From a virus, in IMG/VR virus record IMGVR_UViG_3300050120_000210, positions 1 through 64,000 of that record: DNA of 64,000 bases; one strand, 5' to 3'. A program made the position numbers and the translations under genes. The notes under the pieces were generated by a model. The model searched no databases. It saw nothing but the letters and a program-made list of their open reading frames with translations, and was not told the DNA's origin. The first letter of the stretch is position 1, and each line of letters begins with the position of its first letter. This document shows positions 12,011-36,851 of the stretch, piece by piece.

Positions 12011-12221
12011 TGCACCATCTCGCAGACTTCCTCGCGCGGGAAGCGGCCTTCATTTCCGGCATCCCTCCGTGGGGCTGGGCGCTGCTACTGTGCCTGCTGA
12101 TCTGGTTGGGAATCACGTCGATGTTTCAGCCGCCCCGCTGATCTCGTAAACGAATTGCAATTACGGTGAGATGCTCCTAATATGGGGGTCTCAGACTTGA
12201 CGGCGTGGGAGTCTCTAGCAC

Positions 12222-12352
12222 GCAGGAATGGTGGAATTTGGGCATACACAGGGGTGTGGGTAAGGACCCTCACTTCGGTTGGGAAACGCGGGCGACCGCC
12301 TCCCGGCTGCCTAACATGCGGGTGTTTGCTGGTTCGAATCCAGCTTCGTGAT
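12222..12352 (+). ncRNA. tRNA-like structured RNA with expanded central domain
   Basis: D-arm-like TGGTGGAATTTGGGCATACAC, perfect T-arm GCTGG-TTCGAAT-CCAGC (12328-12344), imperfect acceptor stem, two extra hairpins in place of an anticodon arm; TTGACG at 12197 upstream. Confidence 0.55.
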
Positions 12353-12397
12353 TGGCATGTGAGTGTCGGAGTGACGCCCGGCTCAAGGATGAGAACT

Positions 12398-12724
12398 ATG
12401 GTGGCGAAAACCTACGACCCGAAAACTATGGCGCTCGCTGCCGAATATCCCTTTGAGGTGATGGTGCAATCTAGCACCGATCCTGTCGGGTCGCGGCAAG
12501 GGTTCGGCGTGAAGCTGGGAGTTTCGAGCCGTGGTTCGGGCAAAGTCAACGATAGCGGGTTCGATAATGCCGTTAGAGAAATGATGGACTGGTGTAACGA
12601 GAATTGCGTTTTCTTCTGGATGCTGGGGCCGGTTCTTCCGATCAAAGTGTTCGAGACGTGGACATACAATTTCGCCTTCGTAGACGAACAAGACGCGATG
12701 TTTTTTAAGCTGCGGTGGCAATGA
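12398..12724 (+). CDS. Small-protein paralog family member carrying an 18-codon copy of the prohead protease motif
   Basis: Ends YNFAFVDEQDAMFFKLRWQ; contains GVKLGVSSRGSGKVNDSG. Confidence 0.65.
   Translation: MVAKTYDPKTMALAAEYPFEVMVQSSTDPVGSRQGFGVKLGVSSRGSGKVNDSGFDNAVREMMDWCNENCVFFWMLGPVLPIKVFETWTYNFAFVDEQDAMFFKLRWQ
12505..12558 (+). repeat. 54-nt direct repeat, copy 1 (copy 2 at 26342-26395)
   Basis: CGGCGTGAAGCTGGGAGTTTCGAGCCGTGGTTCGGGCAA[A/C]GTCAACGATAGCGG, 53/54 identical. Confidence 0.95.
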
Positions 12725-13947
12725 AATCCGAACTGATCCTTATGTTGCAAGAGCGTGGTTTCATCAACCAAGCGACTAACCTTGAGGGGTTGGATGCGCT
12801 GGCGCTTGAGCAGAAAATCACGAGCTACATCGGTTTCGATTTGACCGCCGACAGCTTGCACGTCGGCTCGCTGGTGCAGATCATGTTGCTGCGTCACATG
12901 ACAAAGCTCGGCCACGATCCCTTGATCCTCTTGGGTGAGGCGACCACGCGCATTGGCGATCCGTCCGGCAAGAGCGCGGCAAGGCCGATGCTCACCCGTG
13001 ACCAGATCGAGCACAACCGTCTGGGCATCGAAAAAGTTTTCCGCAAGTTCGTGGACAATCCGACGTTCGTTTCGAACGCCGCATGGTTCGACGATGACAC
13101 GACTCTGTTCGGTTACCTGCACGACTACGGCCCGCATTTTTCCATCAACCGGATGCTCACGTTTGATTCGGTGAAGTCGCGCCTGCGTGGGAACTCGACG
13201 CTGTCGTTCCTTGAGTTCAACTACATGCTCATGCAGGCCATCGACTTCTTCAAGCTGTCTGAAACCATGGACTGCGTGTTGCAGATCGGCGGCTCGGATC
13301 AGTGGGGCAACATCATCAACGGTGTCGAACTGGTTCGTCGAAAGAGCAGCCGTGAGGTGTTCGGGCTGACCACTCCGCTGATGACCAACTCGGCCGGGGA
13401 GAAAATGGGCAAGACCGCCGATGGCGCCATCTGGCTCGACCCGGATAAAACCTCGGCGTTTGAGTTCTGGCAGTTCTGGCGGAACGTGGAAGATGTGAAG
13501 GTCGGAGAGTTCCTTCGCCTGTTCACCGACCTCGATCTCGATGAAATCACGCGTCTGGAAATCCTCGGTGGTCAGGAACTCAACGAGGCCAAGAAAATCC
13601 TCGCGACTGAGGTGACGGCCATGGTCCACGGTAGGGCCACCGCTGCACACGTTGCGCTGCTCACCACGGGCGGTAACGTCGATCCCTGCCCGGATAGTAT
13701 GCCGATGCACATTATCCCGTCAGCGGCCTTCTCTGCGGGCATTACGCTCGCTCAAATCCTTCTCGACAGCAAGTTGGTCACGTCGAAGGGGGAAGCTGAT
13801 CGAATGGCCGCTAACGATGGTGTGAAGATCAACGGGCACATCGTCAACGACGTGCGTGAGGTTCTTCCTCGCCATGCGTTCGAGGACAACAGCTTCCTGC
13901 TCTCCGTGGGCAAGAAGAAGATGATCGCCGTGAAGATCGAGGACTGA
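12721..13947 (+). CDS. tyrS: Tyrosyl-tRNA synthetase
   Basis: YIGFDLTADSLHVGSL (HIGH-type), IGDPSG, QIGGSDQWGNI, KMGKT, C-terminal S4-like domain. Confidence 0.96.
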   Translation: MKSELILMLQERGFINQATNLEGLDALALEQKITSYIGFDLTADSLHVGSLVQIMLLRHMTKLGHDPLILLGEATTRIGDPSGKSAARPMLTRDQIEHNRLGIEKVFRKFVDNPTFVSNAAWFDDDTTLFGYLHDYGPHFSINRMLTFDSVKSRLRGNSTLSFLEFNYMLMQAIDFFKLSETMDCVLQIGGSDQWGNIINGVELVRRKSSREVFGLTTPLMTNSAGEKMGKTADGAIWLDPDKTSAFEFWQFWRNVEDVKVGEFLRLFTDLDLDEITRLEILGGQELNEAKKILATEVTAMVHGRATAAHVALLTTGGNVDPCPDSMPMHIIPSAAFSAGITLAQILLDSKLVTSKGEADRMAANDGVKINGHIVNDVREVLPRHAFEDNSFLLSVGKKKMIAVKIED

Positions 13948-18372: not shown

Positions 18373-18696
18373 TCACGACCACCGAAGTTTGAAGTGGAGT
18401 GCTTCGTGAACATCTTCGAACACGAAGCCCGTGGTTCCCAATTTCCATTGACCGTGTAGCTCTTCGACGATCCAGATGATCCGGTCGCCAAGAGCGTTTG
18501 GCTTGACGTGCCGTGGCAATCCCACAGTGCTTCCTTCCAACGTTTCCGACCAACGATCCAGATCAGCTAGGCGCGGCTTTCCTTGAAGCCACCCCGGCCG
18601 ATCCTCTCGCAGACCGATTCGAAGTAGGATCGTGTTGACGTTGTGAAGATAGGAGCCAAAATACTCCACCATCTCGCAAGCGTTATCCACGTTCAT
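18373..18696 (-). CDS. Small-protein paralog family member
   Basis: ATG 18696 overlaps upstream stop; ends GFVFEDVHEALHFKLRWS. Confidence 0.6.
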   Translation of the reverse strand: MNVDNACEMVEYFGSYLHNVNTILLRIGLREDRPGWLQGKPRLADLDRWSETLEGSTVGLPRHVKPNALGDRIIWIVEELHGQWKLGTTGFVFEDVHEALHFKLRWS

Positions 18697-22530: not shown

Positions 22531-24342
22531 ATGTCTTGGAAGAAACACTTCCGAATTGTGAATACTACCGCGCCCGGCGTCAGTTCTATGGCTGTCGGTT
22601 CCGCTGTGGACGAGAAAGCAAGCGCGGGCACTAGCTCGAAATACGCCAGCTATCTTCCCGAGGTTTACGCCGGGCACCCCAACCGAATCCAACGGTATTA
22701 TCAATACGATGACATGGACCGGGACAGCGATATCAACGCTGCGCTCGACACCATTGCTGACTTCTGCACGCAGTCTGAAGAGCAAAACGAAGAGCCCTTC
22801 GAAATCCTCTACAATGAGGAAGCGAACGAGACCGAAGTCACGCTTATCAAGACAAACTTGAAGCTCTGGGTCAAACTCAACGACTTCAAGCAACGCCTCT
22901 GGCACATTTTCCGTCAGACCGTGAAGAACGGTGACCAGTTCTTCTTGCGCGATCCCGAAACAGCCGAATGGCTGTGGATCGACCATTTCTCCGTGGAAAT
23001 GGTGAAGGTTGACGAGAGCGCAGGCAAGGAAGCCGACGAATACATCGTTCGTGGTCTAGATATCAATCGTCAGGCGAAGTTCGCAACGCGTTCGGCCGAT
23101 CCGTCGCAGTATCGCACACCGTTCGGCACCAGTCTCGTTCCGGGCAGTCGTCCGCAGCAAGGCGGCGGCGGTGGACAAGGTTCGAACGTCTTCCAAATGT
23201 CGGGCTCCAACCGCGATCCGCGCTCTGGTGCGGCCGGGCAGCAACTCACCGAACTCTCCGTGATCGATGCCGATCACATCATCCACTTGTCTCTGTCGGT
23301 GGGCATGGACATCAACTGGCCGTTCGGCGCCTCGATCCTCGAACCGATTTTCAAGACCTACAAGCAAAAGGAACTGCTTGAGGACTCGATCATCATCTAC
23401 CGCGTTCAACGCGCACCGGAACGCCGTATTTTCTACATCGACGTGGGCACGATGCCACCTATTCGCGCCAAAGCGCACATCGAGCAGATCAAGAACGAAA
23501 TCCACCAACGTCGCATCCCGAACCGCACCGGTGGTGGCTCGTCCATCATGGACGCCGCCTACAACCCGTTGACCATCGTCGAAGACTATTTCTTCGCACA
23601 ATCGGCCGAAGGTCGTGGGTCCAAGGTCGAAACTCTAGCCGGTGGCGATAATCTCGGCGAAATCGGTGACTTGACTTTCTTCACGAAGAAGATGGCTCGC
23701 GGCCTTCGTATCCCGTCGTCGTATCTGTCGCTCGGCGACGAGGAAGGCGGCGGTGGGGCTTCCTACAATGACGGCAAGCTGGGTGCGGCCGTGATCCAAG
23801 AGTTCCGCTTCAACAAGTATTGTATGCGACTTCAATCCTTGCTGGCTCCGCAGTTCGACAAGGACTTCAAGCGGTTCCTCAAGGCTAGCGGCATCGAAAT
23901 TGAGCAAAGCCTCTTTGAACTCAAGTTTAACCCGCCGCAGAATTTCACTAAATATCGTCAGATCGAACTCGATACTCAACAGGTCGGCGTTTACCAGCAA
24001 GTTGCTGACAACAAGAAGCTCGCAGAACGCTTCAAGTTTAAGCGATTCCTCAACCTCACGGAAGAGGAAATACTGGAAAACGAGCGTATGTGGTCGGAAG
24101 AAAATGCCGCGAAGCTCAAAAAAGCTGTCGGCAATACTCCCGCTGAGAGCGAGCCCGATGGCGATCTGTCGTCAGTTGGTATCCGTATGCCCGGAGATGA
24201 AGGGCTCGGAGACATGGGCGACTTGGATAACCCGGATGAGGCCGGGCCTGATGGCGGCGCCCCGCCTGATGGCGCCGCTCCTCCGGCTGGTGACCAAGGT
24301 GCGGCGGCTCCTCCGGCAGCGGGTGGGCAACCGCCCCTCTAA
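22531..24342 (+). CDS. gp20: Portal protein
   Basis: LLEDSIIIYRVQRAPERRIFYIDVG, EDYFFA..EGRGSKVETL.GG, GLRIPSSYL. Confidence 0.95.
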   Translation: MSWKKHFRIVNTTAPGVSSMAVGSAVDEKASAGTSSKYASYLPEVYAGHPNRIQRYYQYDDMDRDSDINAALDTIADFCTQSEEQNEEPFEILYNEEANETEVTLIKTNLKLWVKLNDFKQRLWHIFRQTVKNGDQFFLRDPETAEWLWIDHFSVEMVKVDESAGKEADEYIVRGLDINRQAKFATRSADPSQYRTPFGTSLVPGSRPQQGGGGGQGSNVFQMSGSNRDPRSGAAGQQLTELSVIDADHIIHLSLSVGMDINWPFGASILEPIFKTYKQKELLEDSIIIYRVQRAPERRIFYIDVGTMPPIRAKAHIEQIKNEIHQRRIPNRTGGGSSIMDAAYNPLTIVEDYFFAQSAEGRGSKVETLAGGDNLGEIGDLTFFTKKMARGLRIPSSYLSLGDEEGGGGASYNDGKLGAAVIQEFRFNKYCMRLQSLLAPQFDKDFKRFLKASGIEIEQSLFELKFNPPQNFTKYRQIELDTQQVGVYQQVADNKKLAERFKFKRFLNLTEEEILENERMWSEENAAKLKKAVGNTPAESEPDGDLSSVGIRMPGDEGLGDMGDLDNPDEAGPDGGAPPDGAAPPAGDQGAAAPPAAGGQPPL

Positions 24343-24830: not shown

Positions 24831-24933
24831 GAAAAATGCCAGTTTTTGCAGTTATCAAACAGTATTTACGCACGATTACTAAATACTTCACAGATGCTTG
24901 AGCGGCGTCGTAGCAATCATAGGGAGACTATCA

Positions 24934-25932
24934 ATGCGTTCTATTTTGGAAAAGGCTTTTGTTGCTCTGCTCAACGAAGAGCACGACAAAGCTGAAGAAC
25001 TGTTTCACAAGTTCATCGTCGAGCGGGCACGTCAGATTCACGAATCCAATCGTGCAGGCGACGATTACGTTCTGGACGAAAACTGGAACGACGAAATCAC
25101 GACCGAATCCTACTTCACCGAAGATGATCTGACCGACATCGAAGGCGAAGGCGAGGGTGAAGATCACGCCGAAGGCGGCGAAGAGATGGGCGGCGACGAG
25201 TTCGGTGCTGACGCTGCTGGTGAAGAACCGGCCGCAGACGAGTTCGGCGCTGAAGCCGGTGGCGAAGGCGACATGGACGGTATGGGCGAGCCCGACGAAC
25301 ATGCTGACGAAACCCCGGAAGAGCAGATCGAAGACCTGCGCGACCAACTCGAAAAGCTGACCGCAGAATTCGAAGCCATGATGGACGCCATCGGTGACGA
25401 AGGCGGCATGGACGACGGCGAAGACGCTGGTGAGTTCGGCGACGAGCCCAAGGACGATGAGTTCTCTGGCGCTGACGACACCGAAACCAACGACGAAATG
25501 GCCGACCACGTCGAAGACGACATGGACGACGCAGGCGAAAAGCCCGCCATGGAAAGCGACGAAGGCGACGAGGAATACGACGACATCACCGAGTCCATCA
25601 TTGATGAACTGGAAAAGGTCACTGTCTCCCTCGACGACGGCAAGGAAATCGGCACCGGCAAGGGTTTCACCCAGAACCGTGGCGCCGCCATCCCGCAGAA
25701 GAGCAAGGACGCCCGTCAGGGTGGTGCTCCGATCAAGGTGAAGCAAGACGCCCACAAGGGCTTCGAGCGTGAGACCGCCCCCGGCGTCGAAACCATGAAG
25801 CCCCGCCGCAACAACGTCTCCAAGGCCAACGCTGCTCTGAGCCGCGTGTCCAAGGAAGGCGACAAGTCGGCCGAGATCAACAAGCTGTCTTCGGAGAACG
25901 GCAACACCAAGTCGCCGCTCGAAGGTCAGTAA
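24934..25932 (+). CDS. Acidic prohead core protein
   Basis: Very D/E/G-rich; upstream of the prohead protease; late promoter 24880. Confidence 0.65.
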   Translation: MRSILEKAFVALLNEEHDKAEELFHKFIVERARQIHESNRAGDDYVLDENWNDEITTESYFTEDDLTDIEGEGEGEDHAEGGEEMGGDEFGADAAGEEPAADEFGAEAGGEGDMDGMGEPDEHADETPEEQIEDLRDQLEKLTAEFEAMMDAIGDEGGMDDGEDAGEFGDEPKDDEFSGADDTETNDEMADHVEDDMDDAGEKPAMESDEGDEEYDDITESIIDELEKVTVSLDDGKEIGTGKGFTQNRGAAIPQKSKDARQGGAPIKVKQDAHKGFERETAPGVETMKPRRNNVSKANAALSRVSKEGDKSAEINKLSSENGNTKSPLEGQ

Positions 25933-25964: not shown

Positions 25965-26600
25965 ATGTCCATGTTTCTTTCTGAACGTCTGACTTTCGAC
26001 CAAGCCCAGATCATCGTTGAATCGATGAACGAGGGTGAGGGCGATAACGCCAAGAAGAAACTGTTCATGTCCGGTGTCTTTATTCAGGGCGGCGTTCGCA
26101 ACCTGAACCAGCGTGTCTATCCCGTCCGTGAAATCTCAAAGGCTGTTGAAAACGTCAACGACATCCTCACCAAAGGTGAGAGTGTTCTTGGTGAACTCGA
26201 CCATCCCGAAGAACTGACGATCAATCTCGACCGTGTTTCCCACATGATTACTAAGATGTGGATGGACGGCAATACTGGGATGGGCAAGCTGCAAATTCTC
26301 CCGACCCCGCTCGGAGAAATCACCCGCACGTTGCTGGAAAGCGGCGTGAAGCTGGGAGTTTCGAGCCGTGGTTCGGGCAACGTCAACGATAGCGGCGAAG
26401 TCTCGGACTTCGAAATTATTACTGTCGATATCGTTGCACGCCCCAGCGCCCCCAATGCCTACCCGAAGCCGGTCTACGAAGCACGTAACAGTCGTCGTGG
26501 CGCCGTCATCGAAGACCTCGCCCGAGCGGTGTCGAATGATCCCAAGGCACAGAAGCATCTCCACAAGGAGCTTCTGACGTGGATCAACAACCTAAAGTAA
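25965..26600 (+). CDS. gp21: Prohead protease
   Basis: NLNQRVYP, GELDHP, LGVSSRGSG, DIVARPSAPNA. Confidence 0.95.
   Translation: MSMFLSERLTFDQAQIIVESMNEGEGDNAKKKLFMSGVFIQGGVRNLNQRVYPVREISKAVENVNDILTKGESVLGELDHPEELTINLDRVSHMITKMWMDGNTGMGKLQILPTPLGEITRTLLESGVKLGVSSRGSGNVNDSGEVSDFEIITVDIVARPSAPNAYPKPVYEARNSRRGAVIEDLARAVSNDPKAQKHLHKELLTWINNLK
26342..26395 (+). repeat. 54-nt direct repeat, copy 2 (inside the gp21 active-site region)
   Basis: 53/54 identical to 12505-12558. Confidence 0.95.
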
Positions 26601-27892: not shown

Positions 27893-29107
27893 ATGAATAA
27901 GCTTTTTGAATCTCAGTGGCAAGCCACTAAGAAGGCCCTGTGCGAAGGTGCAGACCTCAAGAAGAACGCAGACGGTTCGCCGAACACGACCAAGCAAAAG
28001 GTCATGGAAACGGTTCTCGAAAACACCCGTCGTGAACTGAAGCTGCTGGAATCGGCCACCGCCGGTGCCACCAACGCCGCTTCCGTTGCAACCCTGAACA
28101 AGGTCATCCTGCCGGTCATCCGCCGTGTCATGCCGACCGTGATCGCGAACGAAATCATCGGCGTTCAGCCGATGACCGGCCCGGTCGCTCAAATCCACAC
28201 CCTGCGCGTCCGTTACGCTGATACCGTTCCGACCGCTGGTGGTGGTGTTTCGGCTGGTAACGAAGCCCTGTCGCCGTTCGACATCGCCCGTTTCTACTCG
28301 GGTAACGAGAACGTCAACACCCCCAAGGCTGCTGCTACGCCTGCTCTGGAAGGTCGTCCGGGTAACCGCATGTCCATCCAAATCCTGAAGGAAGTCGTCG
28401 AAGCCAAGACCCGCAAGCTCTCCGCTCGCTGGACCTTCGAAGCCGCTCAGGACGCCCAAGCTCAGCAGGGCATCGACATCGAAGCCGAAATCATGGCCGC
28501 ACTGGCTCAGGAAATCACCGCAGAAATCGACCAAGAAATCTTGGTTTCCCTGCGTGCTCTTCCGGGTGCAGCTACTTCGACCTTCAAGCAGGACGACGTG
28601 TCCGGCACCCCGACCTTCGTCGGCGACGTGCACGCTGCTCTGGCCATCCTGATTAACCGTCAGGCCAACCTCATCGCTTCGCGCACCCGTCGCGGCGCCG
28701 GTAACTGGGTTGTCGTCTCCCCGACTGCACTCACGATCCTGCAATCCGCAACGACCTCCGCTTTCGCTCGCACGACCGAAGGCGTGTTCGAGGCTCCGAC
28801 CAACACCAAGTTCGTCGGCACCCTGAACAACTCGATGCGCGTTTACGTTGACCAGTATGCATCCGACGCGACTCCGGTCCTCGTCGGCTACAAGGGCAAC
28901 GAAATGGACGCAGCGGCATTCTACTGCCCCTACGTTCCGCTGACCTCTTCCGGCGTCGTCATCGACCCGAACACGATGGAACCCGTCGTGTCGTTCATGA
29001 CTCGTTACGGCTACATCGAACTGTCCAACACTGCGTCGTCGCTCGGCAACGCAGCGGACTTCCTCGGTCTGGTTGCTATCGACACCGCCACCCTGTCGTT
29101 CATCTAA
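27893..29107 (+). CDS. gp23: Major capsid protein
   Basis: IRRVMPTVIANEIIGVQPMTGP, KTRKLSARWTFEAAQD, AFYCPYVPL, TRYG. Confidence 0.97.
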   Translation: MNKLFESQWQATKKALCEGADLKKNADGSPNTTKQKVMETVLENTRRELKLLESATAGATNAASVATLNKVILPVIRRVMPTVIANEIIGVQPMTGPVAQIHTLRVRYADTVPTAGGGVSAGNEALSPFDIARFYSGNENVNTPKAAATPALEGRPGNRMSIQILKEVVEAKTRKLSARWTFEAAQDAQAQQGIDIEAEIMAALAQEITAEIDQEILVSLRALPGAATSTFKQDDVSGTPTFVGDVHAALAILINRQANLIASRTRRGAGNWVVVSPTALTILQSATTSAFARTTEGVFEAPTNTKFVGTLNNSMRVYVDQYASDATPVLVGYKGNEMDAAAFYCPYVPLTSSGVVIDPNTMEPVVSFMTRYGYIELSNTASSLGNAADFLGLVAIDTATLSFI

Positions 29108-36342: not shown

Positions 36343-36627
36343 ATGGTTGCGAGTCTCGAAGACAATCGGCGGAAGACCCTGTCGGCGCTCGCCCGGACCT
36401 TGGGAAGACGCCCGTTTTCTGTCATCATTCCGATACTGCCCACCGTCGAGCTTCGTTACGCGAAGGAGCAAGAATGCGAACAGTTCATTGCTGATTCGTG
36501 CAAGCACGGGCTCTGGGCGTTCACGCTGTGGGATTCCGATGAGGATCGGATCAACCAGACCATCAGGATCACTTACTATTTCGAAGATGAACGCGACGCG
36601 ATCCACTTCAAGATGCGGTTTTCATGA
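36343..36627 (+). CDS. Small-protein paralog family member
   Basis: Ends YYFEDERDAIHFKMRFS; promoter 36309. Confidence 0.65.
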   Translation: MVASLEDNRRKTLSALARTLGRRPFSVIIPILPTVELRYAKEQECEQFIADSCKHGLWAFTLWDSDEDRINQTIRITYYFEDERDAIHFKMRFS

Positions 36628-36851
36628 GTTGGCTAGTGAAACGCGAGGGGCAGCGAGTTCGCCCCGTAGATTTCAACAACGTGCCGCACACGCTCGTCGA
36701 AATCAGCCACGGCCGCAGTATGGATGCCGAAAACCAGTGGCTAGCTGAAAACACCACTAAAATGTGGGCGAGGACGCGCTTCGAGCATCATGTGATCTAC
36801 ATGTTCGAGAACGACACAGAGGCCCTGCATTTCAAGATGCGGTTCGGTTAA
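36624..36851 (+). CDS. Small-protein paralog family member
   Basis: Ends IYMFENDTEALHFKMRFG. Confidence 0.65.
   Translation: MSWLVKREGQRVRPVDFNNVPHTLVEISHGRSMDAENQWLAENTTKMWARTRFEHHVIYMFENDTEALHFKMRFG

Follow-up and report, generated by a model that had tools for sequence, protein, structure and literature searches.

Break-induced, recombination-dependent replication was first described in T4 (PMC3678771). Template switching at microhomologies yields templated insertions (PMC3678771, PMC2621351, PMC8421209). The 54-nt element described here resembles templated insertions of the MMBIR or FoSTeS type in being a short copy from within the same genome whose donor is intact, and, on its putative breakpoints, in what would be 2-nt microhomologies at both junctions together with a small target duplication. 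The setting is also T4-like, T4 being the phage to which the first description of break-induced replication belongs. It differs from the MMBIR or FoSTeS cases in that the mechanism is deduced from one product.

The element also touches on the sensing of prohead proteases by CBASS (Hobbs and Kranzusch 2026, PMC12991175). T4 gp21 triggers CBASS; this requires its active site and the cutting of an I/LxE-type loop in the CD-NTase. The statement in the first-pass annotation that prohead proteases can act as triggers of defence is well founded. The enzyme family, of the T4 gp21 type, is the same as that of the gene copied here. In CBASS, however, activation is by an active enzyme cleaving the CD-NTase loop, whereas the fragment here is neither enzyme nor substrate and nothing in the analysis links the small gene that carries it to a defence. 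The template and variable repeats of DGRs likewise consist of two near-identical short repeats, one of them in a protein-coding gene. In contrast to these, the pair described here shows one difference in 54 nt with no adenine-specific pattern, and no reverse transcriptase was found in the contig.

The window, the whole 64-kb stretch of DNA that was analysed, is the first part of a 149,124-bp IMG/VR contig. Given a CheckV completeness of ~26% at this length, the contig is a fragment of a very large phage, a T4-like soil megaphage. A T4-type head module comprising portal, S77 prohead protease and gp23-type capsid protein is present in the window, as identified from Pfam and PHROG:

22531-24342, portal gene (PF07230)
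25965-26600, plus strand, intact gene for an S77 (T4 gp21-type) prohead protease of 211 aa (PF03420, E = 1e-27; phrog_207, E = 4e-59; 5JBL, E = 4e-16)
27893-29107, gp23-type capsid protein gene (Pfam/PHROG)

Compared as DNA, the protease gene has its closest matches in the protease genes of Sinorhizobium phage Phosso and Agrobacterium phage Atu_ph07, and related IMG/VR contigs are up to 543-608 kb long. One such relative, G001 (607,744 bp), has a 146-nt terminal overlap (1-146 against 607599-607744, 98.6%), which would fit a complete megaphage genome assembled as a circle. A 344-aa ORF with no Pfam or PHROG match (24898-25932) lies between the portal gene and that of the protease and, judged by its position, may encode a prohead core or internal protein.

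Positions 12505-12558 of the window are identical to 26342-26395 at 53 of 54 positions on the same strand, as found both by a repeat search and by self-BLASTN (E = 2e-20). When short-word self-BLASTN was run across the 149,124-bp contig, this pair was the sole strong self-match. The two copies and the genes around the first of them are as follows:

12398-12724, plus strand, recipient small gene, 108 aa, with an AAGGA Shine-Dalgarno 8 nt upstream and a stop overlapping the tyrS start (ATGA)
12505-12558, plus strand, 54-nt copy of the segment around the protease active site, translated as residues 37-54 of the small protein
12721-13947, plus strand, phage tyrosyl-tRNA synthetase gene (tyrS; PF00579, E = 4e-70; phrog_9270), its start overlapping the stop of the small gene
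26342-26395, plus strand, source of the copy within the prohead protease gene, with the codons for G127-G144 and thus for the catalytic Ser133

Codon phase is equal in both copies, the encoded peptides being GVKLGVSSRGSGKVNDSG versus GVKLGVSSRGSGNVNDSG, and the longest exact run within the tract is 39 nt. The sole difference is AAA (Lys) in the small gene versus AAC (Asn) in the protease gene. Since nine of the ten aligned proteases, the window's own among them, have Asn at this position, the Lys is derived and the change arose in the small-gene copy. The match in the same strand and frame at a distance of ~13.8 kb, from which the first-pass annotation had started, was therefore reproduced by the repeat search as well as by the whole-contig self-BLASTN.

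The copied segment is the most conserved part of the S77 proteases among the homologs examined, with VKLGVSSRGSG invariant in all ten of the aligned sequences. The donor scores 97 bits against PF03420, where the cut-off is 27. In an alignment to T4 gp21 (PDB 5JBL) its Ser133 falls on position 140, and His80 and Ser133 lie opposite two alanines of the 5JBL chain. From the alignment these two alanines would be the inactivating substitutions H85A and S140A; H85 and S140 are the catalytic residues of T4 gp21, and H85A/S140A is a catalytically dead construct (PMC12991175). The donor gene, with its PF03420 match, thus has a His and a Ser at the positions of H85 and S140. The copied fragment spans the catalytic Ser133 only, the catalytic His80 being 47 residues upstream of the copied stretch, and with neither the catalytic His nor the herpesvirus-protease-like fold it is not an active S77 protease. 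The conservation of the segment across the S77 homologs, taken together with its absence from the ortholog of the recipient, points clearly to the protease gene as the source of the 54 nt. On this evidence the proposal that a fragment of a core gene had been captured into a small gene, with the protease as donor, held up.

The sole ortholog of the small gene that was found is on a 39.5-kb IMG/VR contig (L005), in which the gene order matches that of the window: conserved leader, small gene and overlapping tyrS. It encodes 79 aa and the segment is absent, so that an ortholog without the insert, which the earlier reading had recommended looking for, does exist. No further orthologs beyond L005 were returned from the IMG/VR proteins, a set of 5.8 billion proteins, a set of 1.8 billion representatives or the JGI metagenomes. 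In the other megaphages that carry tyrS (L132-L140) the genes upstream of it differ. Comparison of the window with L005 gave a dN/dS of 0.16 for the small gene (dS about 1.1-1.16) and of 0.11 for tyrS, and the value of 0.16 argues that the small gene is a real coding gene under purifying selection. The ATGA stop/start overlap is seen in both phages, at 12721-12724 in the window and 4237-4240 in L005, and the small protein and the phage tyrosyl-tRNA synthetase are probably produced jointly.

The small gene belongs to an expanded small-protein family with the C-terminal motif DA..FK(L/M)RW, of which there are about six copies in the 149-kb contig and roughly twenty in the complete 608-kb relative, G001. 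The family proteins are about 60-110 aa in length, have a W(C/L)xxN helix as well as the C-terminal motif and are found only in these megaphages. Family sites lie at 36343-36851 and 18379-18498 (minus strand) in the window and at about 69.2, 105.2, 119.9 and 143.5 kb of the contig, in addition to the sites in G001. The first of these is a tandem pair:

36343-36627 and 36624-36851, plus strand, two tandem paralogs of the small-gene family with no captured snippet (repeat family D1)

No Pfam or PHROG model matches the family members. Searching the PDB by fold with the small protein gave only weak ferredoxin-like matches, the look-alikes in BFVD are uncharacterised jumbo-phage proteins, for example from Atu_ph07, BcepSauron and PA5oct, and those in the ESM Atlas are unnamed viral clusters. 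A further hit among the 1.8 billion representatives, P0003 (4,352 aa), was rejected as a repetitive unrelated protein with a spurious, multi-repeat score.

Compared with its 79-aa ortholog the small protein has an additional 29 residues (29-57), among which residues 37-54 are the protease copy:

12482-12568, plus strand, 29 codons absent from the ortholog (residues 29-57), in the loop between strand 1 and the second helix

In the family alignment this is the position of a loop that varies from 0 to about 30 residues, which agrees with the first placing of the copy in the variable part of a paralog-family gene. The AlphaFold2 model, calculated from an 11-member family alignment, has a mean pLDDT of 66.5, with a core that reaches a mean pLDDT of 90 in its best stretches and with residues 28-52 below 50; the order of the elements is helix, strand, loop, helix, strand, strand, helix. 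The 11-sequence alignment was needed for a usable core, as a two-sequence alignment gave a pLDDT of 35. The copied peptide is therefore predicted to be a loop insertion that is unfolded or disordered.

The age of the copy can be judged from the protease genes of relatives. The nearest protease gene in the collections, L006, has 94.3% nucleotide identity to that of the window and differs from it at three synonymous sites within the 54 nt (26354, 26357 and 26363). At all three the copy in the small gene has the base of the window, confirming the earlier remark that the synonymous sites are identical. The states of the window look derived, as L008 and L009 share the L006 state at 26357 and 26363, with only L009 sharing it at 26354. 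Because the copy differs from its donor at only one of 54 positions and has three synonymous states that L006 lacks, it was made, or last homogenised, after the split from this 94%-identical relative, and is far younger than the split from the L005 phage (dS about 1.1).

The same agreement at synonymous sites with the phage's own protease gene would be expected if an older insertion had been kept identical to the donor by repeated gene conversion, that is by concerted evolution, and heavy recombination is a feature of T4-like phages (PMC3678771). At 54 nt, and exactly matched over no more than 39 nt at a stretch, the tract is, however, a poor substrate for homologous exchange, and the insert is found in no relative. 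Crossing-over between direct repeats 13.8 kb apart would, moreover, delete the portal gene and other essential genes, which would make maintained identity costly. We regard an origin of this kind as distinctly unlikely.

The insert is bracketed by a short direct repeat:

12500-12506, plus strand, GGGTTCG, left member of a 7-nt direct repeat at the insertion junction
12557-12563, plus strand, GGGTTCG, right member of the repeat, also at the insertion junction and offset from the left one by exactly 57 nt (19 codons)

Removal of one 57-nt unit leaves an open frame of 89 aa, in which ...SRQGF is joined to DNAV..., and the loop length of this collapsed form resembles that of the family member P0004 (89 aa), a protein that is absent from IMG/VR. 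On the putative breakpoints, the sequence common to donor and recipient would amount to only 2 nt at either end, CG on the left and GG on the right, which is a weak microhomology. The remaining 10-11 residues of the loop have no match of at least 12 nt anywhere in the 149-kb contig. The 57-nt unit, and a history in two steps, are what we infer from these features, because the sole ortholog is distant (dS about 1.1) and is shorter by 29 codons and not by 19.

It seems likely that the 54 nt are a recent templated insertion, produced by microhomology-mediated template switching or synthesis-dependent break repair, and that they are probably neutral, with no function for the peptide. Two features expected of a templated insertion were found, in that the insert is absent at the orthologous site in L005 and the donor is intact. 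The ancestor would have carried a loop about 10 residues longer than that of L005. While replication or the repair of a break was under way, an end of DNA within the small gene may then have primed on the protease gene, 13.8 kb away, through a microhomology of 2 nt; 54 nt would have been copied before a return to the small gene a few bases upstream of the point of exit. The product of such an event would be an in-frame insertion of 57 nt (19 codons), made up of the 54-nt protease copy and a 3-nt target duplication, with the GGGTTCG direct repeat bracketing the inserted unit. The insert would have persisted since the surface loop that holds it, in a small accessory protein, is disordered and of variable length, and since the native frame of the fragment is free of stops. 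The placement in the loop and the open frame would together leave the small gene unbroken, as well as the translation of tyrS, if the stop and start are coupled, as we infer. The inserted peptide itself is most likely without function. The copied piece is a conspicuous one, holding the catalytic serine of an essential gene, and its choice may be a coincidence or may mean more.

Preservation of the frame need not point to selection for the peptide. The other two sense frames of the 54-mer contain the stops TAG and TGA, and the native frame alone is open. With a stop-free native frame and purifying selection on the small gene, an in-frame copy is what would be left by survivorship, with no function needed. 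Given this purifying selection, and the probable dependence of tyrS translation on the small gene through the stop/start overlap, the only frames able to survive would be the native one or two of the three antisense frames. Among the options in the first-pass annotation, that of neutral recombination debris fits the evidence best.

The insert is known from a single metagenomic contig, and none of the searchable IMG/VR records contained the junction sequences, in a search that may omit the genome's own and very near records. These points would also be consistent with an artefact, either an error of assembly or a chimera from in-vitro amplification, for example by multiple-displacement amplification. 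A typical read, however, would be longer than the insert, which is flanked on both sides by unique sequence of one and the same gene, and the homologies at the junctions (2-7 nt) are far below the k-mer sizes of assemblers. The copy is, in addition, one base off its donor, in frame and in the length-variable loop of the family, and an artefact appears highly improbable.

Other cases were sought in the contig, the family and the relatives. Short-word self-BLASTN of the 149-kb contig, the check for further core-gene snippets that had been put forward at the outset, gave no others, and the variable regions of the family members had no protein-level match to genes outside the family. Three relatives were compared with themselves by self-BLASTN, these being G001 (complete, 608 kb), G004 (complete, 543 kb) and 240 kb of G002, and in this 1.39 Mb no clear core-gene fragment was seen inside an unrelated gene. 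The self-matches in the three were tRNA genes, palindromic hairpins, within-gene repeats and a few dispersed non-tRNA repeats, the last comprising, in G004, several that are 36-80 nt long and, in G002, a single inverted pair of 76 nt. In G004 (L145-L146), repeats of 70-80 nt with 89-100% identity and no ARAGORN tRNA call are present at about 96.6-104.4 kb and also at 106.5 and 163.1 kb; these could be a tRNA-like or other small structured-RNA family. The first-pass annotation had taken a one-off with no parallels and no phenotype as counting against its reading, and as far as can be told from sequence a one-off is what the insertion is. The case by itself matters little. It does provide a clean and dated example of a large phage in which part of one gene has been grafted into another, at a loop, with neither gene broken. 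The many small accessory genes of giant phages could plausibly gain new loops and peptides through such grafts.

A function for the peptide has nevertheless to be weighed, given what the fragment is. With the copy in place, the loop would show 18 residues of the protease active-site region and might act as a decoy or competitor for a host sensor or a phage partner. In favour of this, prohead proteases do trigger CBASS (PMC12991175), no part of the protease is more conserved than the fragment, and the loop is an exposed one in a gene kept under purifying selection. What the CBASS system described there senses, however, is proteolytic activity, through cleavage of an I/LxE-type loop and 'not simply complex formation' (PMC12991175), and, as Glu is missing from the 18 copied residues, they hold no I/LxE (or xxE) motif. 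The fragment is also without the catalytic His80 and the fold, and its loop is modelled as disordered. The single change since copying alters the peptide (N to K). As a one-off, moreover, the copy is missing from the only ortholog and has no clear parallel in the family or the relatives, while a counter-defence element would be expected to be recurrent and conserved in its lineage. We therefore consider it very unlikely that the loop acts in this manner, and the peptide decoy that had been suggested earlier is not borne out.

To our knowledge there is no sensor that binds this S77 protease epitope directly. It is most improbable that the copy has been kept as a mimic, whether as a decoy epitope for a direct-binding sensor or as a competitor that delays assembly of the protease. 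Were mimicry true, the small-protein family in its expanded form would serve as a scaffold on which captured peptides are displayed, and a decoy would represent a new anti-defence principle.

As the nucleotide match is near-perfect, the repeat might instead serve at the level of nucleic acid, as an RNA guide or antisense, a decoy protospacer, a homing-site copy or a DGR repeat pair. Both copies are, however, sense in genes on the same strand, so that the mRNAs are not complementary; this rejects an antisense or guide function, including the RNA-level guide against the protease mRNA offered in the first reading. The repeat search found no flanking CRISPR-like repeats, and the 149-kb contig, amounting to some 26% of the genome, has no RVT_1 (PF00078) match. 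In a DGR the essential catalytic segment would have to be the 'variable' repeat, and the change of one of 11 adenines is not DGR-like; a DGR pair was rejected from the lack of PF00078 in the contig together with the single difference. A nucleic-acid device of any of these types is extremely unlikely.

Upstream of the small gene the two phages are alike over a further stretch:

12186-12397, plus strand, conserved non-coding leader that holds a putative tRNA-like RNA (12222-12352), 88% identical to L005

The small gene begins just 3' of this leader, in keeping with its original description as lying directly behind a tRNA-like RNA. The identity between the window and L005 is 88% in the leader; it is 73-76% across the small gene, and in sequence farther upstream it is 50%. 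No credible tRNA or RNA family was identified in the leader with ARAGORN or with Rfam, the latter at the gathering threshold and at E up to 10. The leader (3790-4000 in L005) is also more conserved than the surrounding coding DNA (88% versus 73-78%), which fits the presence of a structured tRNA-like RNA. It terminates in a hairpin just 5' of the Shine-Dalgarno, in which a C-to-T change in one arm of the stem converts a G-C pair to G-U.
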